Positions 3,709 to 34,722 are shown, counted from the first letter of the stretch. The stretch: 64,000 bases of DNA from an uncultured virus (IMG/VR IMGVR_UViG_3300034019_000699) (IMGVR_UViG_3300034019_000699), one strand, 5' to 3'. Translations and numbers: made by a program. Notes: a model not told the origin generated them from the sequence alone.

Positions 3709-3735
3709 AGTCCTGGGTATGACTAAAAACTGCCC
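3709..3735 (+). ncRNA. conserved H-type pseudoknot motif, copy 1
   Basis: AGTC-CTGGGTAT-GACT-AAAAAC-TGCCC just after the peptidase stop. Confidence 0.6.
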
Positions 3736-3775
3736 ATGATATAATTATGGTGTCATATCAACAAGGAGGAATATT

Positions 3776-4396
3776 ATGGCAGTAAAAGGTTCAGTAGAAG
3801 CAATCGTTGAGGTTGCAAAGAAAGAAATAGGGACTATTGAAGGTCCTAAAGATAATGAAACAAAGTACGGTGCATGGATTAAGGTTAACTTCCAACCATG
3901 GTGCCAGTCCTTTGTTTCTTGGTGTGCATTTACTGCGGGAGTAAAATCATTCCCTAAGTCTGCATCAACAGTAGCAGCATCAGATTGGTTTAAGAAGGCT
4001 GAGCGTTGGTCAGATGCTCGTAACGATGATCCACAAGCAGGAGACTGGATTTATTTTGATTTCCCAGATGATGGTGTAAATCGTATTTCACATGTTGGTC
4101 TTTGCATTAAGAACAACGGTGATGGAACTATCCAAGTTATTGAAGGAAACACTTCAGGAACTGCAAAGGGAGATCAGCGCAACGGCGGAATGTGCGTAGA
4201 AAAAACTCGTGCATATGTAAAGAACAATAAGAAAAAGTTGATCAATGCTGTAGTTGGTTGGGGTCGTCCAGTTTATACTGGAGAAGAAAATGCTCCACTA
4301 CTAAGTAAAGCAGAAGCAACTACACCTACAAAGCCTGCTAAGAAAGCAGTAAAGAAGTCCGTTGGTGGCGGAGGAAAAGGTCATGTGGCACTATAA
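3776..4396 (+). CDS. CHAP/NlpC-P60 peptidoglycan amidase (endolysin-like)
   Basis: PWCQSFVSWC, SHVGL and IEGNT motifs; Lys-rich tail. Confidence 0.85.
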   Translation: MAVKGSVEAIVEVAKKEIGTIEGPKDNETKYGAWIKVNFQPWCQSFVSWCAFTAGVKSFPKSASTVAASDWFKKAERWSDARNDDPQAGDWIYFDFPDDGVNRISHVGLCIKNNGDGTIQVIEGNTSGTAKGDQRNGGMCVEKTRAYVKNNKKKLINAVVGWGRPVYTGEENAPLLSKAEATTPTKPAKKAVKKSVGGGGKGHVAL

Positions 4397-4614
4397 TGGA
4401 ATCTAAAAAGAAATCAGTACTAAAAACAATCAGTTGGCCATTTGTACATTTTACTTTTGTTGCTGGAATTTTATTTGCAGCAAGCCATATAATTTATGGT
4501 GAGGCTGAATGGGAGTATGTTGGACTATATGCACTTTCATACATGGCATTAGAAATGACATTCTATTACCTACATGAGAGAGTCTGGGCAAAGTTTGGAC
4601 ACAAGGTAAAATAA
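4396..4614 (+). CDS. DUF2061-like small membrane protein
   Basis: KSVLKTISW...YYLHERVW pattern. Confidence 0.7.
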   Translation: MESKKKSVLKTISWPFVHFTFVAGILFAASHIIYGEAEWEYVGLYALSYMALEMTFYYLHERVWAKFGHKVK

Positions 4615-4723
4615 TGCGTATTAAAATTATTAAGTTTGTAGTAAAGGCTTTAGGCTATGAATGGTCTGGAGATGAACTTAAACTGCCTGTTTGGTATGTG
4701 AAGGAAAAGAAAAAGAATAAATA

Positions 4724-5299
4724 ATGAAAATTATTGACAATAAAATTTTTATATTAGAAGATTTTATATCTCCTAATACTGCAAGTTTTATTGTAGAAAA
4801 TTTTTCTAAAGACTTAAAGCCAACACCACACACTGGTATTTATGGAAGTATTAGCAATAACGATGAGAATACACATAAAATTTGTGGCAAAAACAAGGTT
4901 ATAAATTATGATGGAACTAAAGATGTTGCAGTTGATCTACTTATGAGTCTTTTCCCTAGTATAGAAAAAACAATGTCTGAAATTTTTAAAAAAAATATCG
5001 TAATGAAATCCTTTTTTTATAGTCATATGAAATCTGGTGGGAAAAACTCTTTGCATTATGACAACTATGAGGATCAGTATACTAATGATTATTCTGGAAT
5101 ACTATATTTAGCAGACAGTTATACTGGAGGAGCAATAAATTTTCCCAACCAAGACTTAAAATTACATCCAAAGCCAGGAACATTTATATGTTTTCAGGGC
5201 ACGGAAGACATTCAACATGAGGTACAAGAAGTAATAGACGGAGATAGAGTAAATATTATATGTTTTTTTAAGGAAATGGATATATATGCCAGCATATGA
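4724..5299 (+). CDS. 2OG-Fe(II) oxygenase (prolyl-4-hydroxylase-like)
   Basis: LHYD...YLxDxYxGG...HEV...R. Confidence 0.85.
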   Translation: MKIIDNKIFILEDFISPNTASFIVENFSKDLKPTPHTGIYGSISNNDENTHKICGKNKVINYDGTKDVAVDLLMSLFPSIEKTMSEIFKKNIVMKSFFYSHMKSGGKNSLHYDNYEDQYTNDYSGILYLADSYTGGAINFPNQDLKLHPKPGTFICFQGTEDIQHEVQEVIDGDRVNIICFFKEMDIYASI

Positions 5300-5471
5300 G
5301 TATGACTGCATGGCCTGTGCCATGAGGTATACAAAAGTTAGAAGCATGTCAGAAGACGATCCAGGCTATAAATGTGATACTTGCAATAAAGACTTGGTTC
5401 GTGTATACTCAGATATAGGAGTTACATTCAATGGCTCTGGATTTTATAAAACCGACAATCGGAAGGTATAA
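5286..5471 (+). CDS. FmdB-family zinc-ribbon protein
   Basis: MPAYEYDCxxC...CxxC...FNGSGFYKTD. Confidence 0.85.
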   Translation: MPAYEYDCMACAMRYTKVRSMSEDDPGYKCDTCNKDLVRVYSDIGVTFNGSGFYKTDNRKV

Positions 5472-5472
5472 T

Positions 5473-5700
5473 ATGTTTACAATGCTTAAAGATGATGTAA
5501 AACCAGAATGGAAATTATCACCTTTAGATAGATGTGATAGGTGCAACGCAGAAGCCTTGGTTCAAGTAACTGGGCTAAATGGAGAACTATTGTTCTGTGG
5601 GCATCACTACAACAAGGTCATGGACAATGCTGTAGGATATGACAAAATGATGAAGTTTGCTATTACAATACTTGACGAACGAGAAAAGTTGGCGGTATAA
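5473..5700 (+). CDS. small Cys/His zinc-binding protein
   Basis: DRCDRC...LLFCGHH; start revised to ATG 5473. Confidence 0.65.
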   Translation: MFTMLKDDVKPEWKLSPLDRCDRCNAEALVQVTGLNGELLFCGHHYNKVMDNAVGYDKMMKFAITILDEREKLAV

Positions 5701-5702
5701 AA

Positions 5703-6110
5703 ATGTATGAATACTATGTAAGAAAAGTAGAGAACGTAGTAGATGGAGATACCATTGACGTTCTTATTGATTTAGGGTTTGATATTTTGTTTCAATCCCG
5801 TGTGAGATTGGCTGGTATTGATACCCCTGAGTCTCGTACGAAAGACCTAAAAGAAAAAGCACTTGGTCTTGAATCCAAAGAGTATTTAAAGAAGGCTCTA
5901 AAGGATGCTAAGTCTGTTGTAATTAAGACTGAAAAGATGAACTCATCTGAGAAGTATGGTCGCATTTTGGGCTGGCTATATGTTAATGGAGATACAGTGT
6001 CATTAAATGATATGATGATCAACGACGGCTATGCTTGGGGATACCTAGGTGATACTAAGGTAAAGGATTTTGACGCTTTGGTAAAGGCTAGAAAGAAGTC
6101 TGGCAAGTGA
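5703..6110 (+). CDS. thermonuclease (SNase-like)
   Basis: VVDGDTID, VRLAGIDTPE and EKYGRILG motifs. Confidence 0.85.
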   Translation: MYEYYVRKVENVVDGDTIDVLIDLGFDILFQSRVRLAGIDTPESRTKDLKEKALGLESKEYLKKALKDAKSVVIKTEKMNSSEKYGRILGWLYVNGDTVSLNDMMINDGYAWGYLGDTKVKDFDALVKARKKSGK

Positions 6111-7427: not shown

Positions 7428-7428
7428 T

Positions 7429-9917: not shown

Positions 9918-9958
9918 GACGGTTGTTATTTGACAGCCGTCTTTTCTTATGCTATAAT
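9918..9958 (+). terminator. intrinsic terminator overlapping the hsp20 promoter
   Basis: GACGGTTGT/ACAGCCGTC hairpin plus TTTTCTT; contains TTGACA-N17-TATAAT. Confidence 0.6.
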
Positions 9959-16210: not shown

Positions 16211-16894
16211 TTAGCAGTCTTCTGCGGTGCTAACTGGTGCCTTTTCAACATCTATAAACGAGTTTCCGTAAAGTGTGTGTCTTGAGTTAGGACCTAAAAC
16301 TCTTTTTACTCTGTGTTTGTATAGGTCTCCGTCTGCAATATGAGCAAGCATGCCAGCCTTTGGCTTAATTGTTATTGGAAGGTTTCCAAACTCTAACTCT
16401 CCACCATCAAAGTCGTCGTTAAGGTATAGGCTAAATGAACCCTGAATGTTTGCTTCAGCACCAGGATCCTGATGCCAATACATCGCAAAGTCTATATTTG
16501 TTGTATCAACTTTTGATTCTGTAAACCATTCTAAATCTAAGCGTTCTTGAATTTCTTCCTCTGTTAAATATTTAAATGTTTGTAGTGTTGCATGTCTTTT
16601 ATATCCTGGAGGTAAAACAGAATCAAGCCTATCCCAAATCCCCCCTGGATCAGAAAAAAGTGGAAGGCTGACTACTACTGAGTCCTTATCAGGAAATTTT
16701 ATATTTCCATCATCATGATAAGAAGGAACTATGTCTAAAAATTTGTTTAATATATTTTTGTATGGAGACCTCATTGTTGGGTACCATCCATTTGGGTCAT
16801 CGGTTTGTACTTTAAACCATGCCAACTCTTCTGTTGTTAAAAAATCTTCAATAACCCAAATTTTTTTGGCCTCGTCCAAATATATTTTATTCAT
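16211..16894 (-). CDS. 2OG-Fe(II) oxygenase
   Basis: WHQD...YLNDDFDGGEL...HRV...R. Confidence 0.85.
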   Translation of the reverse strand: MNKIYLDEAKKIWVIEDFLTTEELAWFKVQTDDPNGWYPTMRSPYKNILNKFLDIVPSYHDDGNIKFPDKDSVVVSLPLFSDPGGIWDRLDSVLPPGYKRHATLQTFKYLTEEEIQERLDLEWFTESKVDTTNIDFAMYWHQDPGAEANIQGSFSLYLNDDFDGGELEFGNLPITIKPKAGMLAHIADGDLYKHRVKRVLGPNSRHTLYGNSFIDVEKAPVSTAEDC

Positions 16895-16932
16895 AACAAT
16901 ATGATACCATAGTTTTTATTTTAAGCATTTTG

Positions 16933-17646
16933 TCAGCAGTCGTCCTTTGTGCTTAATGGAATTTCTGGTGTTGACCAGCATTGGCCATATAGCGTGTGCC
17001 TATCATTAGGGCCTAAAACTTTCTTAACTCTATGCTCAAACTCTTTTCCTACTGGTATATTTATTAGCATGCCAGCCTTTGGCTTGATAGCATGACCACT
17101 TTTAAACTCTATCTCTCCACCTTCAAAATCATCATTAAGATAAATAGAGTGTGAGGCTGTTCTGTTTTTATTTTTACCAGTGTCTTCCCAGTGCCAATCC
17201 ATCGCATAGTCAATGTCCTTAGCATCTTCTGGGTTAGATCTAATAGCATGCATTTCTGCATCACCAAGAGACATACTTTCGTCTCTATCTCTTTCTATTT
17301 CTTCATCAGTGCAATACTTAAAGGTTTGAATTCCGCTATTGGGTCCATAGCCTTCTGGGAGAACAGATTCTAATCTTTTCCAAATGCCGTCTTCTTTAGA
17401 AAAAATATCCCAAACTTCTTGAACTCTTACGCTATTTTCAGTGGGAATTGAAAGTGTCCCGTCTGGCTCATACTCTGGTATATGCATTGGCCATCTGTTT
17501 AATATGTTTTTGTATGGAGATCTCATAGTTTTGTACCAGGCACCTGGAGCATCCCAATATTTTTTTAATATATTTAGTTCTTCTTTAGTTAAAAAATCTT
17601 CTATAAACCAAACGCCATCGCCTTTATCTAAATATATTTTTTCCAT
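16933..17646 (-). CDS. 2OG-Fe(II) oxygenase, paralog of 16211-16894
   Basis: WHWE...YLNDDFEGGEI...HRV...R; shares TMRSPYKNILN. Confidence 0.85.
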   Translation of the reverse strand: MEKIYLDKGDGVWFIEDFLTKEELNILKKYWDAPGAWYKTMRSPYKNILNRWPMHIPEYEPDGTLSIPTENSVRVQEVWDIFSKEDGIWKRLESVLPEGYGPNSGIQTFKYCTDEEIERDRDESMSLGDAEMHAIRSNPEDAKDIDYAMDWHWEDTGKNKNRTASHSIYLNDDFEGGEIEFKSGHAIKPKAGMLINIPVGKEFEHRVKKVLGPNDRHTLYGQCWSTPEIPLSTKDDC

Positions 17647-17670
17647 TTATATATAATACCATACTTTTAG

Positions 17671-17743
17671 TATCTCCAACGGGATTCGAACCCGTGTTGC
17701 CACCGTGAAAGGGTGGAGTCCTAGGCCACTAGACCATGGAGAC
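17671..17743 (-). tRNA. tRNA-Glu(TTC)
   Basis: GTCTCCA...CCACC-CTTTCAC-GGTGG...GGTTCGAATCC; CCA not encoded. Confidence 0.93.
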
Positions 17744-17747
17744 ATAG

Positions 17748-17821
17748 TAGAGCAGGTAGGACTTGAACCTACGATAACCGAATTATGAGTTCGGGGCCTT
17801 AACCAACTTGGCTACTGCTCC
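17748..17821 (-). tRNA. tRNA with CAT anticodon (elongator Met or lysidine-modified Ile2)
   Basis: GGAGCAG...CCGAA-CTCATAA-TTCGG...GGTTCAAGTCC; lacks initiator GGG/CCC anticodon stem. Confidence 0.9.
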
Positions 17822-20547: not shown

Positions 20548-20586
20548 ATATACATTGTATCTAATATATAACTATAAGTCAAGCCT

Positions 20587-21393
20587 TTATTCATAATGTT
20601 TATTTAACCAATCATTCTCTTTATATCTTGTTATGCTGTTGCCAACGACATAATTATCATATTTTTCTTTTCTTATTTGTGTCATTTCATCAACTGTATA
20701 GTCTATGATTTCAGATGACCAGGACTCATTCTTAATTGGAATTACCTGTGCATAAGGTGTACCTGCTGGGATTGTCCCATACCAGCCATCTTTAATGTAA
20801 AAAGGATAGTTTCCAGAAACTAAATACTTTGTTGCGGCATCGCTAAAGCCTGATATAGTTTTAAATGGAAGATCCTGTATGTTTATTGGGTGCGTAAAGA
20901 ACACAGTGTACCCTTTTGGAACTTCAAACCACCATGTTGGTCTCCAAACAAGAGTATATGGAGAGTAACCATCTGGGTGTGGTAAACCATCTTCAATCCC
21001 CCTATAGTCGCAAAAGCCTCTTGCTGGTCCACAATCTTTCCATTTTTCATCATACTCTATCATAGATTTTCCTCTTTGATGGTGATGAAGTCCTTCTTGA
21101 ATAGAACCATCATTTGGCTTAACCATTATATCGCAAGGAGTAAATAGATAATATCCAGACATAAAAATATCTAGCATTGCTGGACACGATTTCCAGGTTG
21201 GCATTCTATGAATTTTATCTCCATACCTATACAACTGATAAGTACCATCTTGATTTTTTTTAAACTTTTCTTTATCTAAAAACCATTGGGGAATATTATC
21301 TTTGACTGGCTCTGGCCTATAGTCCTTAGTAGTATTATTTGATGGGTGATATGAATGAAATTTTATTACATTGCTCATAACTAATTGTACCAA
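20587..21393 (-). CDS. conserved phage protein (TWKxCPA...IPAGTP family), paralog of 58804-59571
   Basis: Shared TWK.CPA.D, TPCD, P.GY...FT.P.N..DLPF and IPAGTPY.QV.P. Confidence 0.7.
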   Translation of the reverse strand: MVQLVMSNVIKFHSYHPSNNTTKDYRPEPVKDNIPQWFLDKEKFKKNQDGTYQLYRYGDKIHRMPTWKSCPAMLDIFMSGYYLFTPCDIMVKPNDGSIQEGLHHHQRGKSMIEYDEKWKDCGPARGFCDYRGIEDGLPHPDGYSPYTLVWRPTWWFEVPKGYTVFFTHPINIQDLPFKTISGFSDAATKYLVSGNYPFYIKDGWYGTIPAGTPYAQVIPIKNESWSSEIIDYTVDEMTQIRKEKYDNYVVGNSITRYKENDWLNKHYE

Positions 21394-21514
21394 ATTGTAT
21401 CAGGGTATGTCAAGCAAGTATGGCTGTAAGAAGAACAACGGCAACAACTAATATAAGTAAGTATTTAACGCCCTTTTCGGCTTTTTCTGTATTCATATAA
21501 CTATTATACCCTAT

Positions 21515-21754
21515 TTAAAGTTCTACGCTTTCTGTCCATATTAAACCACATTTGGTGCAGGTAATACCAGCATCTCTCATGTAGAAGGTATGTTTGCATG
21601 GAGCAAAGACAGTGTGATCCTTGTAGCCTTTATTGCGTTGTTGAATCTTAAACTTTCCATTCGGGTCATGGACATGGCACAAACCATTTTTGCGAAAATC
21701 CTCAACATCTATGTTGCAAGGAGTTTTCTTTTTGGTTAGTGCTTTACATCTCAT
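21515..21754 (-). CDS. small zinc-binding protein
   Basis: RCKALTKKKTPC...CHVH; CTKC. Confidence 0.55.
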   Translation of the reverse strand: MRCKALTKKKTPCNIDVEDFRKNGLCHVHDPNGKFKIQQRNKGYKDHTVFAPCKHTFYMRDAGITCTKCGLIWTESVEL

Positions 21755-21802
21755 AAATCAAGTATCTCAGATTTTGCGGGGGATGTCAAGTATAATAGAA
21801 CT

Positions 21803-22114
21803 ATGACCCTACTATATATACTCTATAGCCCCATATACAAGGCTATCAAGATAGGTATATCAGATGTCTCAGGCAGAAGGTTTGCAAGCCATAGGACCAA
21901 GGGTTGGATATTGATCAAGTATTGGGCATTTTCCGAACGGGATATGGCAAGAAGAGTCGAATCTACAGTACTAAAAACACTAAGGGAAAGATATGGTTAC
22001 TTTCTGGATAAGGCGGATATGCCTCAAAATGGATACACAGAGACCTTTGATGCTTCAAAGATAACCCGTAGGGCTTTGATCCGTATGGTTAACAAAACCA
22101 TAAAAAGTATTTAA
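21803..22114 (+). CDS. GIY-YIG/T5orf172-like nuclease-domain protein
   Basis: LYILY...IKIGIS...RR...E...GYTETF; leaderless TATAAT. Confidence 0.7.
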   Translation: MTLLYILYSPIYKAIKIGISDVSGRRFASHRTKGWILIKYWAFSERDMARRVESTVLKTLRERYGYFLDKADMPQNGYTETFDASKITRRALIRMVNKTIKSI

Positions 22115-22117
22115 TAT

Positions 22118-22726
22118 TTATATTTTTTCAATGCTTATATTGACAACCATGCTAAGCCTGTAGTCATGATGTTTTGGGTGTTCCCAGGTGTGAAAATAGT
22201 CTCCATCAAAAATTACTGCATGGCCTGCACCTGGAGAAAACCTTTTTTTCTCTAAGAGTTCTTCTTGAGTGTGTGGATGACCATCTGCTTTTAAATCAAA
22301 CATTATAGTATCTCCATCAGAGTCGTTAACAAAAAATAAAAAAATATAGTGTTTTTCTTTTCCTCTAAGATCTACATGAGGCATTGTAGGTCTTGGGTCA
22401 TTAGACATAAAGGTCATGTTAGTTCTAGTCCTATATATCTCTAAAAGTTTAAAGCCATGCTTTAGACAAAATTTTTCTACTAGCATTTTTGCCATCGGTC
22501 TTAATTGATCTGGAATGTGTAGATGATTATTTCCAGAAATCATTATAAGTCTATCAAAAAACCTATCACCAGTTATTCCAGTTATCCCATCCTCAGATGT
22601 TCCAATGGTATTATTTGGATCAAAATTAAATGGTGCCTGAGATATCTCTAAAAAAACACTATTTAACTCTTCTTTAGTTAAAAACTCTGTGTCGATAATA
22701 TAATCTGGAAAATTATTATCTATCAA
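22118..22726 (-). CDS. 2OG-Fe(II) oxygenase
   Basis: PHVD...FVNDSDGDT...FDGDYFH...R. Confidence 0.75.
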   Translation of the reverse strand: MIDNNFPDYIIDTEFLTKEELNSVFLEISQAPFNFDPNNTIGTSEDGITGITGDRFFDRLIMISGNNHLHIPDQLRPMAKMLVEKFCLKHGFKLLEIYRTRTNMTFMSNDPRPTMPHVDLRGKEKHYIFLFFVNDSDGDTIMFDLKADGHPHTQEELLEKKRFSPGAGHAVIFDGDYFHTWEHPKHHDYRLSMVVNISIEKI

Positions 22727-22796
22727 TTTTTACCCCTAATTCTTGCTTAACCAACAGTTTAAATTATATCACAATGCCTCACTTAAAGGTATCCAA

Positions 22797-22910
22797 TATC
22801 ATGATAAGTCAGATATGCCACAGGGGGGGTATACAGAAACATTTGATGCTAGTAGGATAACTCGTAAGGGTTTAATCCGTATGGTCAATAAGTTAATTAA
22901 AGATCAGTAA
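22797..22910 (+). pseudogene. 3' remnant of a second GIY-YIG-like gene
   Basis: Reads DKSDMPQGGYTETFDASRITRKGLIRMVNK versus DKADMPQNGYTETFDASKITRRALIRMVNK in 21803-22114. Confidence 0.8.
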
Positions 22911-23481
22911 ATCCTGCTCTTTTTAAAATGCCCCAATATTCTTTTGAATATACAAACCCAGAATAGGCTATCCTATCTTTGCCAATAACTTGTTTCACTG
23001 CATGACTGTACTCTTCGCTTGCTGGAAACACAATGAGAGTTCCTTTTTTAGGCATAAACTCAATTGGCTTATGCTCAAAGACTAACTCGCCTCCAGAGTA
23101 TCCATCATTTAAATATAACACAACTCCAAGAGTAATCCATCTTGATTCGTAATCGCATTCTGGGTGATTCTCGTAATGATATCCTAGCGCTAGGTGGTCA
23201 GATGTGGCTGGGCTGTACTTAGTCAGCATGTTTGTTCGTCTTAGTTTTTGATTTTCGTCATCAGTTACGAACCTAATCTTATCTTCTATGTTTTCTTTAA
23301 AATATTTAATTGATTCTTCTGACTTAAAAACAGATGTGTATATCTTTTCGTGCTGATCGTCTGCACCTCTTAACTTCCACTCTATGTCAGATGTAAGAAG
23401 TTCGTCGATTTCGGATTCGGCGATAAAATTGTCGATATAAAAAATGTTTTCTTCTATGTATGTTTTTTCGTGAATGTCCAT
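22897..23481 (-). CDS. 2OG-Fe(II) oxygenase
   Basis: YHYE...LYLNDGYSGGEL...HAV...R. Confidence 0.85.
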   Translation of the reverse strand: MDIHEKTYIEENIFYIDNFIAESEIDELLTSDIEWKLRGADDQHEKIYTSVFKSEESIKYFKENIEDKIRFVTDDENQKLRRTNMLTKYSPATSDHLALGYHYENHPECDYESRWITLGVVLYLNDGYSGGELVFEHKPIEFMPKKGTLIVFPASEEYSHAVKQVIGKDRIAYSGFVYSKEYWGILKRAGFTDL

Positions 23482-28740: not shown

Positions 28741-28900
28741 GTATTAATTATGACAGGAATCCTGGGAAATGTCAAGTCTATCGTAAAGATTTTTTGGTTT
28801 GATATTTTTGGGGATTTTTAATAGTCTTCGTAAAGATTTTTTAATTTGACATTTTTATGTCCGATATGTCTGAATTGTCCACACGTGCGGATTTTCTTTG

Positions 28901-28976
28901 CGATTCCGATGGGATTTGAACCCACGATCTCTACAGTGACAGTGTAGCGATTTAAACCAGACTAATCTACGGAACC
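28901..28976 (-). tRNA. tRNA-Asp(GTC)
   Basis: GGTTCCG...CTACA-CTGTCAC-TGTAG...GGTTCAAATCC...CGGAATCG. Confidence 0.9.
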
Positions 28977-28983: not shown

Positions 28984-29010
28984 GAGCAGTTTTTATTCTT
29001 ACTCAGGAAT
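28984..29010 (-). ncRNA. pseudoknot motif, copy 3
   Basis: ATTC-CTGAGTAA-GAAT-AAAAAC-TGCTC. Confidence 0.6.
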
Positions 29011-29018: not shown

Positions 29019-30035
29019 TTATGCAATCTGCAAAACATTTTGCACAACTTTTAGCAAACGATTCTTTTCTGCATTGATAGCAGGGTCAAATCCGCTTGCG
29101 CTTGCAAGGATAGATTCGTTAGAACCACCACGAGCAGAACGATACCAATCAAGGCGTTCAGTTAGTGCATTGAAAGCACCCCACGCATTACCAGCAATCA
29201 TTCCATTGAATTCGCCAGTGTAGATGTCATTGATAACATCAACCTTGTTTTCCCATTTCTTGAAAGCACCCTTAGAATCTTTTTCAGGCTTAGGGTATGC
29301 AGCAAGAATGATGTTGTTGAAATCTTGTGCGGTGATTTCTTTTTGAATCATAGCGTTAGCCATAACATCAAAAGAGTCCATGTACTTATGGGCAAGACCC
29401 AAAGTTTCACGAGCAACGGCAACCTTACCAGAAGCGGTCTGAGTGTGGCGAATCTTGAAAGATTGCTTGACACCATTCTTTTTCTTAGTAGTGTTTAGTG
29501 CAAGGTTAAGAGTGTTAGCGCATACAACACGAACAGGTGTGATACTTGCTTGAATAGCGATTGAGCCATCGTGTGATGTATTGATAAGTAGATAAGTCTT
29601 GACCTTATCTGCAACACCGCTAGGGTCTAAGATTGTTTCACGCTCTAGTGCTAATGCACCGAATACGACACGACCACCCTTGATTGAACCAGCGGTTTCC
29701 CAACGACCTCCGCCATCGAGAATGTTATCACCGAATGAAAATAAATCTTCATTCTGCATAACATGATAACGCTCACCAACGACACCAAGAATGTCGGTCT
29801 GAGAGTTGTCAGTAGGATTGGTACGCAATACATACTGATAGTTTTTGTCACTTGTTAAGTGTGATGGGGTTTCCAAATCCTCAAGACGAACATTCCAATT
29901 AGAAAGGCTTGCTAGGTCTAGCATTTCTTTTGTTGTTTTTTCCTCTGTGAATACGGTACCCAATCCATGCCAAGCGGGTTCACGAAATGATGCGAATGAA
30001 GCCTTACCATTTTGTGTTTCGATTTCATGTGCCAT
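29019..30035 (-). CDS. DUF932 family protein
   Basis: MAHEIE...PAWHGLG...ETAGSIKGG...NTSHDGS...TPVRVVCANTL...IRHT; AAAAAGGAG SD. Confidence 0.88.
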   Translation of the reverse strand: MAHEIETQNGKASFASFREPAWHGLGTVFTEEKTTKEMLDLASLSNWNVRLEDLETPSHLTSDKNYQYVLRTNPTDNSQTDILGVVGERYHVMQNEDLFSFGDNILDGGGRWETAGSIKGGRVVFGALALERETILDPSGVADKVKTYLLINTSHDGSIAIQASITPVRVVCANTLNLALNTTKKKNGVKQSFKIRHTQTASGKVAVARETLGLAHKYMDSFDVMANAMIQKEITAQDFNNIILAAYPKPEKDSKGAFKKWENKVDVINDIYTGEFNGMIAGNAWGAFNALTERLDWYRSARGGSNESILASASGFDPAINAEKNRLLKVVQNVLQIA

Positions 30036-30066
30036 GAGTTTTCTCCTTTTTTGTTGTTGAATTTTA

Positions 30067-30088
30067 AGTATAGCAGGACGGGCTGACA
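30067..30088 (-). promoter_or_regulatory. RecA-NDp/PafBC-type promoter
   Basis: TGTCAG-CCCGTCCTGC-TATACT. Confidence 0.7.
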
Positions 30089-30113
30089 AATGCAAATCGG
30101 GATAGTTAAACAT

Positions 30114-30196
30114 GGGACAAATTGGACATTCCTTAATGTGATTAAATTCACATGATCGTAAAAGTTATCCACAGACTTATCCACAGGCCCCACGTG
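30114..30196. promoter_or_regulatory. operator block: GGACA-N4-GGACA, CRP-type site, two DnaA boxes, CACGTG
   Basis: TGTGATTAAATTCACA 30137; TTATCCACA 30165 and 30177; CACGTG 30191. Confidence 0.7.
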
Positions 30197-30220
30197 TAAA
30201 TTTTGCGGGAATTAAAAGTT

Positions 30221-30247
30221 GAGCAGTTTTAAAACATGCTCAGGTTT
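30221..30247 (-). ncRNA. pseudoknot motif, copy 4
   Basis: AAAC-CTGAGCAT-GTTT-TAAAAC-TGCTC. Confidence 0.6.
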
Positions 30248-30262
30248 ATTAGTAGCCCCCTA

Positions 30263-30691
30263 CTAAATATCTATACGGTCCACACTGGATGATAACCATG
30301 TGACATCATCTGAATTGTAAGATACAGTATCGAAATCAATATCATGAATTAGATTCTGTGCACTTTCTTCATCTCGTGCATTGACTGTAATTGAATAAAG
30401 AACTGTGACTTCCAATTCAAATTCTTTTGTTAACTCAAATCCGCAAATATCTGCAATTGCTTGTGCAGTCTCTTCTGAAATGGTACCGTCGTCCAAGTTT
30501 TCTAAGGTCCACTCTTGCATTTCATTACGCATACGAGAGCGCTCTGCAGCCTCACCATATGAGCGCTGAGTTACTTTTTGAATGTGCTCTTCAAGTTGTT
30601 GAATGCGTTCTTTGTTTTGTACTAGAGTAGTTTCTAAAAACTCTCGTGTCATATAGTGTGTGTCTGTTGCTACTGTGATTGGTTGGTCCAT
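30263..30691 (-). CDS. hypothetical coiled-coil/acidic protein
   Basis: AGAGG SD; follows the 30723 promoter. Confidence 0.7.
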   Translation of the reverse strand: MDQPITVATDTHYMTREFLETTLVQNKERIQQLEEHIQKVTQRSYGEAAERSRMRNEMQEWTLENLDDGTISEETAQAIADICGFELTKEFELEVTVLYSITVNARDEESAQNLIHDIDFDTVSYNSDDVTWLSSSVDRIDI

Positions 30692-30722
30692 GGGGGCCTC
30701 TTTCTGTTAGTTGGTTAATTCA

Positions 30723-30744
30723 ATTGTACTGGGTGCCACTGACA
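30723..30744 (-). promoter_or_regulatory. RecA-NDp/PafBC-type promoter
   Basis: TGTCAG-TGGCACCCAG-TACAAT. Confidence 0.7.
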
Positions 30745-30765
30745 TTTGTCAAGATCCCTTGCGGG

Positions 30766-30792
30766 GAGTAGTTTATACACATACTCAGGTGT
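30766..30792 (-). ncRNA. pseudoknot motif, copy 5
   Basis: ACAC-CTGAGTAT-GTGT-ATAAAC-TACTC. Confidence 0.6.
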
Positions 30793-30847
30793 CTTATCTC
30801 AGGCATACCTACACATCAAGGCGTAGGGCTTAGCAGAGATAAATTAT

Positions 30848-31273
30848 TTAGAGATAACGAGCAACCGCATTGTAAGTGCTGGTGCTAACTACTTCCTCAT
30901 CTGTCATCTTGAGAATACGAATTGCGTTAGACATTTCATCTACCATCTCGTTGTAGGTGTGTCTGTGGATTTGCTCAAAATTACGCTCAGGTTCAGCAGG
31001 AAAGTTTGTTCCGCTTTCTACCTTGATGTCAAAATCAACATTGAGAGTTTTGTTCCACTCACGATAGTTCGTGCGTAGATTTTCTGCCTTTGAGATTTGA
31101 CTAATAGCATACTTTACTAATTGTTCGTTCCAAGCCTTTTGTGCTTCTTGGAACTTTGCTTCGTTCTCATCTTGTGTTTTGTAGTTAGCCTCTAGTTCTG
31201 CTAACTTAGTTTCTAGTGCGTTGATAACTCTCTGTGTAGGTATCTTTACGCTAATTGCTTTTCCTCTTGCCAT
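30848..31273 (-). CDS. conserved hypothetical coiled-coil protein
   Basis: AAAGGA SD; 141 aa. Confidence 0.7.
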   Translation of the reverse strand: MARGKAISVKIPTQRVINALETKLAELEANYKTQDENEAKFQEAQKAWNEQLVKYAISQISKAENLRTNYREWNKTLNVDFDIKVESGTNFPAEPERNFEQIHRHTYNEMVDEMSNAIRILKMTDEEVVSTSTYNAVARYL

Positions 31274-31314
31274 TGGGTCTGTTTCCTTTTCTTTGTTTTG
31301 TTAGGGGGTTGGTT

Positions 31315-31350
31315 GAGCAGTTTATTTATTATCTCATGCTCAGGAGATAA
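31315..31350 (-). ncRNA. pseudoknot motif, copy 6
   Basis: TTATCTC-CTGAGCAT-GAGATAA-TAAATAAAC-TGCTC. Confidence 0.62.
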
Positions 31351-31358
31351 TTGTCAAA

Positions 31359-31523
31359 CTACTTGGCTGTCCAAGTTGTGTATCGTGGCTTGCCATTTAC
31401 ATCTAACTTGACACGAACATTTCCGTTAGCCTGTGGTGTGATTTCTGTGATGATACCACTTACCTTTGACTTTTGAGTTGTGTAGGTGTCGCCTACTTTG
31501 TAAGTTGCGGTTGCTACTGACAT
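31359..31523 (-). CDS. small basic beta-rich protein (54 aa, absent from the ORF track)
   Basis: MSVATATYKVGDTYTTQKSKVSGII...; GAAGGA SD; TTGACA-N17-CATAAT upstream. Confidence 0.7.
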   Translation of the reverse strand: MSVATATYKVGDTYTTQKSKVSGIITEITPQANGNVRVKLDVNGKPRYTTWTAK

Positions 31524-31621
31524 TTGTTTCCTTCTTTCTGTTAGGGTTTTGCTTACTATCTAATTATGACATTTCTTGGGAAAAATGTCAAGTCTAATTT
31601 GAGATTTCTCAAATAGTGAGA

Positions 31622-31792
31622 TTACTTGCTGGTCTTGACCATAGCCAAACGGCGTGAGCCATTTGCTAGAACTAGACTAACTCTGGTAAGTTTATTAGAC
31701 ATTGGCTCAAAACTAGCAATACGACCTGTAATGCCTGTCTTGCTTGTCGTGAATAAATCACCAATTTGGTATTGGTATCCTCCAAGGGTCAT
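31622..31792 (-). CDS. small basic protein, paralog of 31359-31523 (56 aa, absent from the ORF track)
   Basis: MTLGGYQYQIGDLFTTSKTGITGRI...; same leader TAGATAGTAAGCAAAACCC. Confidence 0.7.
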   Translation of the reverse strand: MTLGGYQYQIGDLFTTSKTGITGRIASFEPMSNKLTRVSLVLANGSRRLAMVKTSK

Positions 31793-32026
31793 TGTTCTGC
31801 CTTTCTGTTGTGGGGTTTTGCTTACTATCTAATTCTAGCAGAAAAATGTCAAAAATACCAATTCAGCGGAGGATTTGGGGTGTGTCCTTAATCACATCTT
31901 AAAGGCGTGTCGTGACTTGACAGATCAAAGATTTTGCCCACGTGCCCTTTCGGGATTACTACTGATACAAAAATAAAATAAATAAAAAAAATGCTAAGAA
32001 CATCCATTGTGTTGAATTCATTTATC

Positions 32027-32749
32027 TCATTTCTTACTCGCAGAAAAAATTATGTCACTCTTAGAGTATACACAAAGTGAGCAAGAAACGCAAGCGCTTC
32101 CATTTGTTGAGATAAGCGGAATTTGTTTATTATTCTCAGGACACTTAGCAGCAGGCTTACCAATCATTTCTTTTACATCTGCTTGACCAATAGCAAAATT
32201 CTTAGCAAGGTATGCCATGCGTACGCCACTATTAATTTTTAGGTCTACTGCGGTTTTTACATTCTCGCTATCTGCAGAAAAGTATAGGCTTAGATTATCA
32301 ATACCCTTGAGCATTAGAGCAGCACTTGCTACACGAGTATAAACCCAAAATTGAATTTCAGGATGATTAAGTATTACATGCTTCCATGCGAATGTGTAGG
32401 TATCGTTAAAAAAGTCTCCGTCCCAATGAATACGGAATAGTTTAGGAGCGTCTTTCTTATTGCAGTCTGCAACAAAATCAACAATCATTTCTTCAAGCAA
32501 TGCTTTCATAGTATCATGGTCTGCGTCTTTAAGCAATGCCCAATTGTGTAATAGATTAGTTTTTACTGCGGGGAATAGTCTTTCGAGTTTTCCTGCGTAG
32601 CATACGCTTTCACATACGCTAGTGGCACCAGGGCACGAGAAAGCCTTTCCAGCAGGTAATCCAAATGTGTTTGCGATACTTGCTTGTTTTCCATTTTTTG
32701 TGACAAGGTTAGCCACCTTCCTATCTTTAGAGCGTTTTAGTTTAGTCAT
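32027..32749 (-). CDS. GP88-like protein (Cys-motif, radical-SAM-like)
   Basis: FGLPAG..SCPGAT..C...CYA; FRIHWDGDF; FWVYTR; C..C..C. Confidence 0.75.
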   Translation of the reverse strand: MTKLKRSKDRKVANLVTKNGKQASIANTFGLPAGKAFSCPGATSVCESVCYAGKLERLFPAVKTNLLHNWALLKDADHDTMKALLEEMIVDFVADCNKKDAPKLFRIHWDGDFFNDTYTFAWKHVILNHPEIQFWVYTRVASAALMLKGIDNLSLYFSADSENVKTAVDLKINSGVRMAYLAKNFAIGQADVKEMIGKPAAKCPENNKQIPLISTNGSACVSCSLCVYSKSDIIFSASKK

Positions 32750-32771
32750 GGGGTTCTACTTTCTTTCTTTA

Positions 32772-32793
32772 ATTATAGCGGAGGGGTCTGACA
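32772..32793 (-). promoter_or_regulatory. RecA-NDp/PafBC-type promoter
   Basis: TGTCAG-ACCCCTCCGC-TATAAT. Confidence 0.7.
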
Positions 32794-32944
32794 ATTTTTT
32801 TCTATTGTAGGTTTTCTTTGACGGAACACTTGAGGCAGCATTAGATCTACGCAACTCCATAAGTCTGCGTAATTCCTCGGGTGTTTTCTTTTGTGTCATA
32901 AACTAATCTTAGCATACATGGGATAAAAATGTCAAATCTTAAAA

Positions 32945-32971
32945 TGTGATAAAGATCACACGACGCACGTG
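32945..32971. promoter_or_regulatory. CRP-type palindrome and CACGTG upstream of a TTGACA promoter
   Basis: TGTGATAAAGATCACA 32945; CACGTG 32966. Confidence 0.65.
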
Positions 32972-33010
32972 GGCATTTTTATGCGGGGAAGTGCATAAAA
33001 ATACTTTTAG

Positions 33011-33253
33011 TTATTCTATTGTTTCAATAAAAACATACAACGGAATTAAATCAGTGTAAGAATAATTGGCAAAGTCTAATTCATCAAATTCATTCTTAGT
33101 CTGAATACTCCAATTATCTGCAGTTGAATCACTTTCAATAAACATAACTTCAACAATGTCATCACCGACTTTAATTAAATCGCCAATCATTAATTGATCT
33201 GGCTTGAGTTCATCTGCAAAGATTAGTTCCATGCTATTTATTGTATCAGACAT
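33011..33253 (-). CDS. hypothetical acidic protein
   Basis: GGAGG SD. Confidence 0.6.
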   Translation of the reverse strand: MSDTINSMELIFADELKPDQLMIGDLIKVGDDIVEVMFIESDSTADNWSIQTKNEFDELDFANYSYTDLIPLYVFIETIE

Positions 33254-33471
33254 TTTACTTTCCTCCTACTTTTCCGTCACGATAAAAAATCTTGGTGTGC
33301 ATTTTGCCATTAGGCTCTGAAAAATTGTAGGTTGCATAGTCATCTGCAAATCCCCAATCCACAATTTTATTCCACTCGGTCACTGCGCTAATTGCGTCTG
33401 AATAACGACCAACCCAATGAGGTGAAGTATCATTATCATAGGTTGCAGTAATTGCGTATGAGTATTCCATT

Positions 33472-33768
33472 TTAGTATTCCCTTTCAATAAGCCACGCAT
33501 TTAGGTGGTGTTGTTCAATTATTGCATAAGCGGGGGCAGTAGTCAAACCCTTATAGGTTATTCCTTCGGGCATAGGTATTTCCAAGTCCCATAGTCCTGC
33601 GTCATTTACTGCGTCAATAGCCTCAATACATACCGATACCATAGACTTAGGCACTGGCGGGTAGTGATTAGCAGATAAGTGAATACCTATCTGAGTTTCT
33701 AAATCAAGATGAATACCAAGATTATCAAGTGTTCCGTCTGCCATTTCTGTTGCAAAATTACTTCCCAT
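33472..33768 (-). CDS. hypothetical protein
   Basis: HLSANHYPPVP...IIEQHHLNAWL. Confidence 0.65.
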   Translation of the reverse strand: MGSNFATEMADGTLDNLGIHLDLETQIGIHLSANHYPPVPKSMVSVCIEAIDAVNDAGLWDLEIPMPEGITYKGLTTAPAYAIIEQHHLNAWLIEREY

Positions 33769-34001
33769 TATCGTGCTTCTCCGCTCATTAGTAGTTCAGG
33801 CTCACTTAGTAGCCCATTATCCCAAATAACACTTCCGTCATAGTCTAATAGTAATTCGTAGGGATTACACTCGCAAGTTTCTGAGTCAAAATCCTCGCCA
33901 TTTCCCCAATACAAATTACCTTGACCATTACAAGCATTACAATTCTGTATCGCTCTTAGTGCGTATTCTAATTTATCCATTTTTTCCTTCTTTCTGTTCA
34001 T
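33768..34001 (-). CDS. small zinc-finger protein (CxxCxGxG...CxC)
   Basis: CNACNGQG...TCECN. Confidence 0.6.
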   Translation of the reverse strand: MNRKKEKMDKLEYALRAIQNCNACNGQGNLYWGNGEDFDSETCECNPYELLLDYDGSVIWDNGLLSEPELLMSGEAR

Positions 34002-34007
34002 ACTGAA

Positions 34008-34029
34008 ATCCTATCAGATAGGGCTGACA
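34008..34029 (-). promoter_or_regulatory. RecA-NDp/PafBC-type promoter
   Basis: TGTCAG-CCCTATCTGA-TAGGAT. Confidence 0.7.
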
Positions 34030-34050
34030 TTTTCAACCCTACCCAACCAC

Positions 34051-34548
34051 TCACCAAGACGAATGGTACGAAAAGGACAAATTGGACAATTCGGGTAGAG
34101 CAAGAATACGCTCTAATTGTTCAATAGTATTCTCTAGGTCACGCCAATACCATTGATCGATATCTGTTCCACCAAAGAAAAATCCTTCTTGTGGTGGCAA
34201 TAGGCTAGGGTCTTTATTTTCTAAAGAGTGCTTACAAATCGCAAGCAATTCTATTAATTTATCTTGTGATACATAGTAGTCACCGCAGTCGTCAATTCCT
34301 TTTTGTACATTTTTGACAAACCAATTATGAATCTGATTAGCCTTGCGCCAATAAGCACAAGTCACTTCTACGCTTGCGCCATAGATATCTGTTGCGACAT
34401 TGGATAATTGTGTTAATTCCATTAGGTTGTTGAATTGCGGATATACCGCTTCAGGTGAGTCATAAGATAATTCGTCATTATCTCTTAGTGCGTTCCAATT
34501 CACTTTTTCCAAGTGTTTCTTGGCTAGTAAGTACATATCTAATCCCAT
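34051..34548 (-). CDS. conserved phage protein (MGLDMY...YWRKANQIHNWF)
   Basis: Motifs typical of a widespread uncharacterised phage family; GAAGG SD. Confidence 0.75.
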   Translation of the reverse strand: MGLDMYLLAKKHLEKVNWNALRDNDELSYDSPEAVYPQFNNLMELTQLSNVATDIYGASVEVTCAYWRKANQIHNWFVKNVQKGIDDCGDYYVSQDKLIELLAICKHSLENKDPSLLPPQEGFFFGGTDIDQWYWRDLENTIEQLERILALPELSNLSFSYHSSW

Positions 34549-34576
34549 TGGATTACCTTCTTTCTTTTAGGCTTCT

Positions 34577-34687
34577 AGCCTATCATTTCCTACTGACAAA
34601 ATCAAACCGACACGCCGTAAAATCTGGGGGAATATTAAAATGTGTCGTAAATCACCCTGTGTATAACCCTGTGGATAACCCCACGTG
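34577..34687 (-). promoter_or_regulatory. PafBC-type promoter plus operator block
   Basis: TGTCAG-TAGGAAATGA-TAGGCT 34577-34598; CGACACGCC 34608; CRP-like 34641; DnaA boxes 34658 and 34670; CACGTG 34682. Confidence 0.72.
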
Positions 34688-34695
34688 AAATTTTT

Positions 34696-34722
34696 GAGCA
34701 GTTTTAGATCATGCTCAGGATT
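34696..34722 (-). ncRNA. pseudoknot motif, copy 7
   Basis: ATC-CTGAGCAT-GAT-CTAAAAC-TGCTC. Confidence 0.6.

Follow-up and report, generated by a model that had tools for sequence, protein, structure and literature searches.

What is the short repeat that recurs between genes of an uncultured virus, a lake phage (IMG/VR IMGVR_UViG_3300034019_000699), and what might it do there? Within the 64,000 nt analysed, here called the window, a reading made from the sequence alone had noticed seven copies of a compact H-type pseudoknot of about 27 nt, with compensatory changes in its two stems, P1 and P2. Using the pattern CCTGRGYAW-N(3-12)-AAACTRCYC, exactly seven matches were found in the window, at 3712 and 10526 on the plus strand and at 28984, 30221, 30766, 31315 and 34696 on the minus strand, and none in 100 dinucleotide-preserving shuffles. 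A covariance model of 127 instances, run on the whole window with filters off, picked out the same seven copies with 34.2-50.9 bits, the next match reaching 9.9 bits (E 0.81). Number, places and sequences of the copies were thus as the sequence-only reading had given them:

3709..3735, plus strand: copy 1; P1 AGTC/GACT; P2 GGGUA/UGCCC with one U-G; 37.6 bits
10523..10550, plus strand: copy 2; P1 GGAC/GUCU with one G-U; L3 of 7 nt; 34.2 bits
28984..29010, minus strand: copy 3; P1 AUUC/GAAU; 50.2 bits
30221..30247, minus strand: copy 4; P1 AAAC/GUUU; 50.9 bits
30766..30792, minus strand: copy 5; P1 ACAC/GUGU; P2 GAGUA/UACUC; 40.0 bits
31315..31350, minus strand: copy 6; P1 of 7 bp; L3 of 10 nt; 38.4 bits
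34696..34722, minus strand: copy 7; P1 of 3 bp, fourth position A opposite C; 43.0 bits

Four neighbouring features are referred to below:

28900..28976, minus strand: tRNA-Asp (GTC), 7 nt downstream of copy 3
29019..30035, minus strand: DUF932 gene, upstream of copy 3; start at 30035 inferred from alignment with gp197 of phage Trina
30723..30752, minus strand: promoter-like site (TTGACA, 18 nt, TACAAT; 11/12), 14 nt downstream of copy 5
34729..34830, minus strand: hydrophobic small ORF of 33 aa, a mechanical ORF and putative gene only

All seven copies are intergenic, lying between ORFs, and all share the strand of the flanking genes, as had been claimed; the ORF map of the window runs on the plus strand to about 12.1 kb, on the minus strand to about 40.4 kb and on the plus strand thereafter. 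P1 is indeed compensatory in the window, its length ranging from three pairs in copy 7 to seven in copy 6. The earlier description of the copies as lying shortly after a stop codon applies to five of them (gaps of 5, 8, 15, 11 and 6 nt at sites 1, 3, 4, 6 and 7) and not to sites 2 and 5, which are separated from the last called gene by 87 and 55 nt. Copy 1, with its gap counted from stop to P1, follows TAA of ORF 2831-3703, and its end is 40 nt from the ATG of an endolysin-like ORF at 3776. Two other hairpins intervene between the Hsp20 stop and copy 2. Copy 3 follows TAA of the DUF932 gene and is succeeded by ACCAUUU and then by tRNA-Asp, in agreement with the tRNA placed 7 nt behind one copy by the sequence-only reading. 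Upstream of copy 4 are tandem TAG stops of ORF 30263-30691, the gap being occupied by a 6-bp hairpin. Other hairpins also separate copy 5 from ORF 30848-31273, and on its downstream side a CCC-GCAA-GGG hairpin precedes the promoter-like site. Copy 6, located 8-11 nt past TAG of ORF 31359-31523 (11 nt to the nominal 4-nt P1), is overlapped by a second promoter-like site (TTGACA, 18 nt, GATAAT). Copy 7 follows TAG of the 33-aa ORF.

The fold consists, in order, of P1 (variable in its 3-4 pairs, with a closing C-G), L1 (CU), the 5' strand of P2 (GAGYA), a 1-nt junction, P1', L3 (NW-AAAC) and the 3' strand of P2 (URCUC), usually followed by A. A search of public viral contigs, of the kind suggested by the sequence-only reading, retrieved hundreds more copies; the family is large and has members in phages and in some integrated mobile elements. 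In the alignment of 127 instances, 97.3% of cells pair as against 80.6% in shuffles, and the covariation score is 0.433 as against 0.126 (reached by none of 500 shuffles). When the partner is slid by 1-3 columns, pairing falls to 24-42%. Compensatory changes occur at all nine base pairs of both stems: each P1 position displays 4-6 pair types, and P2 variants alter both sides together.

Pairing was further assessed by fixing one side to a variant, leaving the partner free and counting the partner bases. With G14 fixed, the partner was C in 65 and U in 4 of 69 matches; with A15, A13 and G17 it was U in 58/61, U in 54/70 and C in 5/5, respectively, and with G in the closing pair, C in 31 and U in 2 of 34. 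In matches devoid of P1 pairing, partner bases were random. At pair 16-36, U-G occurs 20 times and C-A never among 88 instances with full P1 (33 versus 5 in the variant test). Since G-U is common and C-A rare, the sense strand is the one that folds.

Conservation also extends to unpaired positions. AAAC is retained in 79 of 82 matches when L3 is left free, and L1 CU is present in all model matches shown. CUG and AAAC, described earlier as invariant, are so in the window, but elsewhere in the family A may replace the G of CUG and then faces U. The second L3 base tracks the middle P1 pair, being A in 73 and U in 8 cases with A-U or U-A, and A in 52 and U in 146 with G-C or C-G; this association (Fisher p = 7e-24) persists in three strata of flank GC. 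Taken alone, the helices have median energies of -1.8 kcal/mol (P1) and -3.7 kcal/mol (P2) in 344 copies. Insertions (4, 9 and 16 nt) are confined to the junction loop, and sequence conservation stops at the 27-nt limits of the knot. The nine-pair covariation, the preference for G-U over C-A and the junction-loop insertions strongly support what the sequence-only reading had proposed, a compact pseudoknot formed by the sense strand and placed on the 3' side of cistrons. Comparative analysis thereby shows the element to be a sequence-conserved RNA of about 27 nt folding into an H-type pseudoknot.

Occurrence on either strand had been named beforehand as a sign of a DNA site. Instead, the knot shares the orientation of the upstream gene in 93 of 100 cases and that of the downstream gene in 90 of 102, and the transcribed message of the upstream gene includes it. 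Of 92 gaps between stop and P1, none measures 0-4 nt and 39 measure 5-9 nt; a single gap of -3 depends on a questionable ORF of 62 codons. If the outermost pair that could form is taken as the limit, the smallest gap is 4 nt. Upstream stops are TAA in 38/52, tandem in some, and the next start follows at widely varying distance (8-420 nt, median about 80). In 14 of 127 cases a tRNA gene begins 5-14 nt past the knot, so that RNA there must be cut just behind it; these neighbours represent mostly one homologous tRNA-Asp locus. The base following the knot is A in 67-73%, and G accounts for only 4-12% at +2 to +9. The sequence-only reading had offered an exonuclease block, a processing signal, a ribozyme or ligand or protein binding as functions; it is towards a role at the 3' end that position and flanks point.

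Two cultured phages, Rhodococcus phage Trina and Methylophilales phage Melnitz-3, carry the knot in the same context, as a single copy each. In Trina it lies behind a DUF932 gene as in the window (the DUF932 proteins are 43% identical), with a different P1 and the GGGUA/UGCCC variant of P2. In Melnitz-3 it is found 5 nt past an annotated stop.

Comparison with known RNA classes, proposed by the sequence-only reading, returned no family. Using Rfam 15, the whole window at gathering score yielded three tRNAs and nothing else, the segment 30180-31400 (three copies) at E<=10 only two unrelated weak matches on the opposite strand, and twenty variant loci at E<=5 no match. Neither the window nor these loci matched RF00522 (preQ1-I) at any threshold tried, and the copies sit behind stop codons of unrelated genes, not in a 5' leader of queuosine or transport genes; a preQ1-I riboswitch is thus unlikely. 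Literature searches gave no description of this pseudoknot, which is real and apparently undescribed. The stable G+C-rich hairpin of an intrinsic terminator is absent, as terminator scans called none of the seven sites and the helices are weak. Spacing would fit a stimulator of -1 frameshifting or readthrough, but the stops are mostly TAA and partly in tandem, and the 52 upstream sequences listed have no heptamer in common; beyond the stop upstream of copy 1, the reading frame closes after 11 codons. A ribozyme is unsupported, the conserved sequence ending at 27 nt. Stoperators and start-associated sequences of actinophages are fixed DNA protein-binding repeats; structure-preserving changes in P1 and P2 speak against repeats of this kind.

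Probably, each message has its end capped or marked by the knot. As the best of several readings, we tentatively propose that it is a 3'-end module, or cap, of the upstream cistron, a possible reading to which we give somewhat less than even weight. A terminating ribosome would shield the message to about 5 nt past the stop, and the knot would start directly behind it, so that no bare RNA would be left between ORF and fold. This footprint argument uses a ribosomal helicase site at about +11 relative to the P site and the 5-9 nt spacers of frameshift signals. The transcript would be cut or ended in the G-poor, pyrimidine- and U-rich 8-9 nt 3' of the knot. L1, lying in the deep groove of P2, and the adenines of AAAC, lying in the minor groove of P1, would stiffen the knot so that it blocks 3'-to-5' exonucleases. 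Each cistron would keep a defined and protected 3' end, and transcription could still continue into a following gene or tRNA. Against this, PNPase and RNase II are usually stopped by hairpins more stable than P1 or P2 alone, and the RNA runs found, all of them contigs of relatives, display no RNA ends. Because extra hairpins adjoin several copies, the knot may not be the barrier itself, and a role as general stabiliser is odd given the one copy each in Trina and Melnitz-3. A specific partner is hinted at, since near-invariant CU, AAAC and P2 sequence exceed the needs of a plain barrier.

Other readings of the same features were considered. The knot may fold in the exit channel of RNA polymerase over a weak U- and pyrimidine-rich hybrid and cause pausing or partial termination between promoter-gene cassettes, which we regard as rather unlikely. 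A U tract lies directly behind 104 of 344 copies (13-30/344 at control offsets), depletion of G spans about 9 nt, the length of the hybrid, and four successive window genes have a consensus-like promoter in front and a knot behind. A preQ1-type pseudoknot stabilises a polymerase pause, which also counts in favour of attenuation. Similarly placed T4-type promoter-early stem-loops (PeSLs) lowered reporter expression (PMC2839356). However, 70% of copies lack the U tract, its presence is unrelated to next-gene distance (medians 132 and 118.5 nt, p = 0.59), the helices are weak, and the window has canonical terminator-like hairpins elsewhere (9918-9941, 38003-38024 and 50618-50639). A tRNA 7 nt behind the knot, or a Shine-Dalgarno sequence and start 8-40 nt behind it, leaves no room for a promoter, and polymerase must therefore read through in many cases. 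Promoter scans were overall not above shuffles (24 versus 19.5 in the scan that gave the site behind copy 5); extended -10-like words 3' of copies 1 and 2 were recognised by eye only and were not called by a scan. The near-invariant unpaired bases and the covariation of L3 with P1 speak for an aptamer, in which a small molecule or a phage or host protein would bind a P1/P2 junction pocket (L1 CU, L3 AAAC), lock the fold and so decide what happens to many messages at once. Folds that depend on a partner typically have marginal helix energies, and part order and A-rich tail (...AAAC-U) recall the preQ1-I aptamer. Still, this has a low probability in our view: no Rfam family, preQ1 included, matches, the upstream genes are unrelated (protease-like, Hsp20, DUF932, small ORFs), the site is behind ORFs and not in 5' leaders, no expression platform is present, and a non-systematic look found no candidate binding protein.

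It is improbable, albeit conceivable, that the knot mimics a tRNA acceptor, with RNase P cutting between L1 and P2, or with RNase Z, exonucleases and CCA-adding enzyme making a tRNA-like 3' end. Its strand order is that of the TYMV acceptor pseudoknot, P2 is preceded by U and opens with a G-C pair, and A frequently follows the helix. ACC is the commonest triplet after the knot (20/127, 16%), ACCA follows some copies, and tRNA genes adjoin as described above. Against this, the stacked helix is just 9 pairs long, nothing corresponds to a T-arm, ACC is in the minority and near-absent in three sub-families (1/46, 1/41 and 0/30), the tRNA neighbours come mostly from a single locus, and both conserved P2 sequence and the tie to stop codons would be left unexplained. 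A DNA element, either an intergenic repeat cassette for recombination (PeSL-like gene shuffling) or a protein-binding site, is very improbable. The repeats do lie in a variable early region, a relative's contig (RNA run X15) joins 30142 to 34670, skipping 4,527 nt between the spacers of copies 4 and 7, and PeSLs are a precedent (PMC2839356). But the joint in this contig falls in DnaA-box-like repeats outside the knot, the variable P1 splits homology into runs of about 10 nt, and orientation tracks genes. Compensation at nine pairs, tolerance of G-U (A-C on the other strand) and length change in one loop argue for a folded single strand. Beyond the 3'-end cap, we consider a wider and rather speculative reading, in which the knot would represent a new RNA class, widespread in phages and mobile elements. 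Placed exactly where the terminating ribosome ends, this minimal pseudoknot may bind a cellular machine or small signal molecule in its conserved CU and AAAC pocket. Candidate partners would be the entry site of the ribosome, RNA polymerase, an enzyme of tRNA processing or a metabolite. If so, a single factor could decide at the 3' ends what becomes of many phage messages, in the manner of a 3'-UTR riboswitch or ribosome-coupled switch; to our knowledge, no RNA switch of this kind is known in bacteria.

Among known systems, the preQ1-I aptamer, about 30 nt long and marginally stable, is an H-type pseudoknot whose A-rich 3' tail (...AAAC-U) forms P2 with the hairpin loop. The phage knot matches it in type, size, stability and tail, whereas its L2 is 1 nt without the ligand-pairing C, and it is multi-copy, placed behind ORFs and unlinked to queuosine genes. 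The luteovirus-type -1 frameshift pseudoknot (BWYV) lies 5-9 nt behind the ribosomal A-site codon and has a short stem, a 2-nt L1 and a second stem, with one base extruded at the junction and an A-rich loop occupying the minor groove. Size and plan are nearly identical, including this spacing, but the phage knot follows a stop (mostly TAA, sometimes doubled) and no slippery heptamer. In the acceptor-arm pseudoknot of plant-virus tRNA-like structures such as that of TYMV, A/CC(A) comes after the 3' strand of the second stem; strand order is shared, the phage knot continuing with A and in a minority with CC(A). Unlike the TYMV structure, it is internal to polycistronic messages of DNA phages, lacks T-arm and anticodon-arm equivalents and has ACC in only 16%. 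RNase III sites between the cistrons of T7 early mRNA, and other 3' stabilising hairpins such as REP elements, define and protect 3' ends of cistrons while transcription continues; the former are long imperfect hairpins cut by RNase III, the latter plain stable stem-loops. These too are sense-strand RNA structures, several of them between early genes, but the phage structure is a nine-pair pseudoknot with no known nuclease. T4-type PeSLs consist of a promoter and a stable stem-loop with G/C run, shown to terminate (PMC2839356, PMC4122927), and their stem-loops cut reporter expression like a strong terminator (PMC2839356). They resemble the knot in being repeated, intergenic and in sense, in a variable early region behind stops of small ORFs, often with adjoining sigma-70-like promoters and tied to gain and loss of gene blocks (PMC2839356, PMC4122927). 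A true PeSL-like composite is present in the window at 9918-9958, and promoter-like sites lie over or just 3' of copies 5 and 6, where the fold is not a stable stem-loop. In contrast to PeSLs, the knot is a weak pseudoknot of 27 nt with conserved loop and tail, which a promoter may adjoin or not.

Re-reading of the sequence confirmed all seven copies of the knot, a ~27-nt H-type RNA pseudoknot (stem P1, loop L1 CU, stem P2 GAGYA/URCUC, a one-base junction and loop L3 NW-AAAC), that the sequence-only reading had placed in the window:

3709..3735 (+), copy 1, 5 nt past a stop codon
10523..10550 (+), copy 2, 87 nt past the last gene, other hairpins between
28984..29010 (-), copy 3, 8 nt past a stop codon, start of tRNA-Asp 7 nt 3' of the copy
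30221..30247 (-), copy 4, 15 nt past a stop codon
30766..30792 (-), copy 5, 55 nt past the last gene, other hairpins between
31315..31350 (-), copy 6, 11 nt past a stop codon
34696..34722 (-), copy 7, 6 nt past the stop of a 33-aa ORF

The consensus pattern of that reading matches the window seven times and 0 of 100 dinucleotide-preserving shuffles. Covariance model R1, trained on 127 instances with only P1 as structure and applied without filters to the entire window, recovers the same seven copies at 34.2-50.9 bits. Since the next-best match scores just 9.9 bits, the window contains no decayed copies. All seven are intergenic and share the strand of their flanking genes, so that the sense-strand location stands, as does the position ahead of tRNA-Asp. 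Location shortly after a stop codon, claimed for every copy that does not end a candidate ncRNA, holds for copies 1, 3, 4, 6 and 7 (5-15 nt) and fails for copies 2 and 5. No Rfam family matches the knot: at gathering thresholds the entire window yields three tRNAs and nothing at the knot copies, and when the cut-off is relaxed to E<=10 for 1.2 kb containing three copies, two unrelated weak matches appear on the opposite strand.

Some copies have peculiar surroundings. An accessory hairpin at copy 4, 30250-30265 (-), has a 6-bp stem and GGGG loop, begins in tandem TAG stops and is kept in three related loci. Directly 3' of copy 5, a CCC-GCAA-GGG tetraloop hairpin, 30756-30765 (-), is kept in L070, one of the 20-kb loci of knot-bearing public viral contigs. 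The hydrophobic 33-aa ORF that ends before copy 7, 34729-34830 (-), overlaps the stop of the preceding 66-aa ORF by 4 nt and may encode a small membrane peptide.

Covariation in both stems, proposed from the window alone, was borne out by alignment scores as well as by scans with open partners. In an alignment of 127 rows, 97.3% of cells are paired compared with 80.6% in shuffles, and the covariation score of 0.433 (0.126 in shuffles) was reached in 0 of 500 shuffles. When 3' partners are shifted by 1-3 columns, pairing falls to 24-42%. Because this set was selected for P1 pairing and most of P2 was fixed, extra tests were performed in which one side of a pair was set to a rare base and its partner left free; counts were made where all three variable P1 pairs form.

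Partners in open-partner scans, among the matches listed (P2 pairs numbered as in the alignment; the closing pair is the C-G end of P1)
P2 pair 14-38, G fixed: partner C 65, U 4 of 69
P2 pair 15-37, A fixed: partner U 58 of 61
P2 pair 13-39, A fixed: partner U 54 of 70
P2 pair 17-35, G fixed: partner C 5 of 5
P1 closing pair, G fixed: partner C 31, U 2 of 34

In matches of the same scans without P1 pairing, partners are random. R1 matches in the 20-kb loci that fall outside the seed pattern display the same double changes, and their insertions of 4, 9 and 16 nt (L390:432-473, L284:9984-10030 and L332:12264-12317, respectively) are confined to the normally one-base junction loop. The longest of these insertions could form a small hairpin of its own. 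P1 and P2 pairs rank top in mutual information. Pair 16-36 is often U-G and rarely C-A (20 vs 0 and 33 vs 5 in two scans, among the matches listed); since these would be A-C and G-U on the other strand, it is the sense strand that folds.

Loop L3, when left fully free, contains AAAC in 79 of 82 of the matches listed. In L304:7711-7749 and L327:12194-12232, AAAC-U is replaced by AAAA-G, and the last P2 pair is then A opposite G. The second base of L3 is associated with the middle P1 pair: A-U or U-A occurs with 73 A and 8 U, G-C or C-G with 52 A and 146 U (Fisher p = 7e-24), and the association is present in each of three flank G+C strata. It fits a putative contact of L3 with the P1 minor groove. 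Each helix is weak alone, with median energies of -1.8 kcal/mol for P1 and -3.7 kcal/mol for P2. On comparative evidence, the predicted structure is as good as proven.

The search of phage metagenomes retrieved hundreds of further knots from public viral contigs. The first scan, with one P2 pair left free, detected at least 136 stretches; among the matches listed, four P1 pairs form in 88 and three in 28 of 138 distinct instances, and spacing is identical in 74 of the 88 with full P1. As a control for chance, the same pattern gave 119 matches in bacterial and archaeal genomes, only 10 of which combine full P1 with canonical spacing, and gap lengths were flat. Distinct pooled viral instances with at least three of four P1 pairs and all five P2 pairs number at least 344; nearly every viral scan gives a lower bound, and the family is thus larger.

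A model search of 14 cultured phages was positive for two, with one copy each. In Rhodococcus phage Trina, a knot with different P1 and the GGGUA/UGCCC form of P2 begins 6 nt past the annotated stop of gp197. Gp197 is homologous to the DUF932 protein of the window (43% identity), and the knot lies behind the DUF932 gene in both phages. Melnitz-3, a marine T4-like phage whose host is a proteobacterium of the Methylophilales, carries the AAGCA/UGCUU form 5 nt past an annotated stop; 17 nt beyond the knot come the Shine-Dalgarno site and the start of the gene that follows. No knot was detected at E<=0.01 in Jay2Jay, L5, BillNye, TunaTartare, Annadreamy, Peregrin, Dropshot, AnarQue, Shade, JAMaL, phiN3 and Hendrix. 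Among bacteria, ten genomes carry a canonical knot, with 1-4 copies per genome. In two of these, small genomes with the title Saccharimonadales or a similar one, copies lie beside serine recombinase, Replic_Relax and DUF3768 genes and thus apparently within integrated mobile elements.

The window has a G+C content of 37.5% and encodes tail fibres, endolysin, Hsp20, a WhiB-like protein and many 2OG-Fe(II) oxygenase paralogues. Genes that surround the copies have actinobacteriophage genes as nearest named relatives; they include those for a DUF932 and a GP88-family protein with 51-54% identity to proteins of Streptomyces and Mycobacterium phages. Because of these relatives and the presence of window DNA in lake-water metagenome runs, the host is probably a low-G+C freshwater actinobacterium. 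The nearest viral record contains four knot copies. Six RNA runs contain only 6-15% of the window's words, and the four examined gave contigs of relatives with 90-99% identity.

One relative's contig (RNA run X15) joins window position 30142 to 34670 and omits 4,527 nt, the genes between two spacers bearing DnaA-box-like nonamer pairs, which suggests block loss or gain via recombination between repeated spacers. These pairs are located at 30165-30185 (-), where TGTGGATAA occurs twice behind copy 4, and at 34658-34678 (-), where TTATCCACA and TTATACACA, the reverse orientation, occur behind copy 7. The word AAATTT(A)CACGTGGGG is common to both sites, 5' of each pair. The DUF932 ORF, 29019-30113 (-), probably starts at 30035 rather than 30113, since Trina gp197 begins to align at residue 27 and the inner start is closely preceded by a promoter-like site (30089-30061) and a Shine-Dalgarno-like word. 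At least ten ORFs, at 46552-63739 (+) and 16211-23481 (-), have matches in the oxygenase PHROG family and alternate with phrog_7084 paralogues in an unusually large array.

Position relative to genes was analysed in the 20-kb loci, with the longest non-overlapping ORFs as a crude gene call. The knot has the same orientation as the upstream gene in 93 of 100 cases and as the downstream gene in 90 of 102; 87 of 103 copies lie outside called ORFs, though 82% of the DNA is coding. The gap between the stop of an open frame of 60 codons or more and the nominal P1 start is 0-4 nt in 0 of 92 copies and 5-9 nt in 39, with a long tail. A single case at -3 depends on a frame of 62 codons, and 9 of 101 copies have no qualifying stop within 160 nt; if the gap is taken up to the outermost pair that could form, its minimum is 4 nt. 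Since this gap is sharp and the spacing to the following start varies widely (8-420 nt), the knot is tied to the end of the preceding gene and not to the following one. Stops before the knot are TAA in 38 of 52 cases, TAG in 11 and TGA in 3, some of them doubled. Readthrough or frameshifting was rejected: stops are mostly TAA and some are tandem, a common slippery heptamer is missing from the 52 upstream sequences listed, and the frame at copy 1 is shut after 11 codons.

The base right after P2 is A in 67-73% of copies, and from +2 to +9 G accounts for only 4-12%, with U and C abundant. A terminator-style U tract follows 104 of 344 copies, compared with 13-30 of 344 at control offsets; its state has no predictive value for distance to the next gene, and a separate terminator subset was rejected. 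Also rejected was a helix between A-rich 5' and U-rich 3' flanks (mean duplex energy -1.285, against -1.268, sd 0.073, with permuted partners). ACC is the commonest triplet after the knot (20 of 127) and nearly missing from three sub-families. A tRNA gene, mostly tRNA-Asp, begins 5-14 nt 3' of 14 of 127 copies. In the early region of the window, four consecutive genes each have a consensus-like promoter 5' and a knot copy 3', and one promoter-like site overlies copy 6; over the window as a whole, promoter scans did not exceed shuffles. Canonical terminator-like hairpins are present elsewhere in the window. One composite resembling the promoter-early stem-loop (PeSL) cassettes of T4-type phages, 9918-9958 (+), consists of a 10-bp terminator-like hairpin and U tract and closely precedes the Hsp20 gene; the -35 of a sigma-70 promoter with perfect consensus (12 of 12) lies within the hairpin's loop and 3' arm.

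What is observed is a conserved sense-strand pseudoknot, predicted by sequence comparison, directly 3' of stop codons and followed by a G-poor, U/C-rich tail. Our best-supported guess, a tentative one, is that it may serve as a 3'-end module of the preceding cistron. The helicase site of the ribosome lies ~11 nt from the P-site codon, and spacers of frameshift signals measure 5-9 nt. In the light of these figures, the 5-nt floor could be the distance that lets a downstream structure stay folded while the A site holds the preceding codon. Placed as near the stop as the ribosome permits, the knot would leave no bare RNA; its tail would be where a cut or stop occurs, and 3' exonucleases would be halted by the knot. 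In copies followed by tRNA the cut would be made by RNase P. If the host is an actinobacterium, an RNase E that cleaves 5' of cytidines (PMC10641625) would find a fitting substrate in the A-C-C tail. As the Melnitz-3 copy demonstrates, the knot is not limited to such hosts.

Against a 3'-end module stand the weak helices, the single copies of Trina and Melnitz-3 and the conserved unpaired bases, which suggest a specific partner. Such a partner would be at home in an aptamer for a ligand or protein, a function that we consider doubtful. Attenuation of polymerase by the knot, on which the excess of U tracts bears, is likewise unlikely. Mimicry of a tRNA acceptor, to be viewed alongside the copies that precede tRNA genes, seems improbable, and a cassette acting at the DNA level, set against folding of the sense strand, is very improbable indeed.

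No description of the motif was found in Rfam 15 or in the literature searched; a catalogue of 10,006 viral RNA candidates (PMC10690425), only partly searchable, may hold a nameless entry. RNA motifs this small and this covarying, spread across phages of unrelated hosts, here an actinobacterium (Rhodococcus) and a proteobacterium (Methylophilales), are rare finds. The sharp 5-nt limit would tie the folded RNA to the stretch of message that a terminating ribosome covers. It offers a testable handle on how phages control 3' ends and lifetimes of cistrons in polycistronic messages, the setting of individual cistron ends being a little-understood aspect of how bacteria express their genes. With two cultured phage-host pairs, bench tests are now feasible. 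Should the knot turn out to act as a compact barrier or as an attenuator, its 27 nt would also be a part ready for use in operon tuning.

In plan and size, luteovirus frameshift pseudoknots and the preQ1-I aptamer are among the structures closest to the knot; the preQ1 covariance model gives no match. In genomic role, PeSL cassettes and intercistronic stabilising structures come closest. On the features compared, the knot does not clearly belong to any of these classes.
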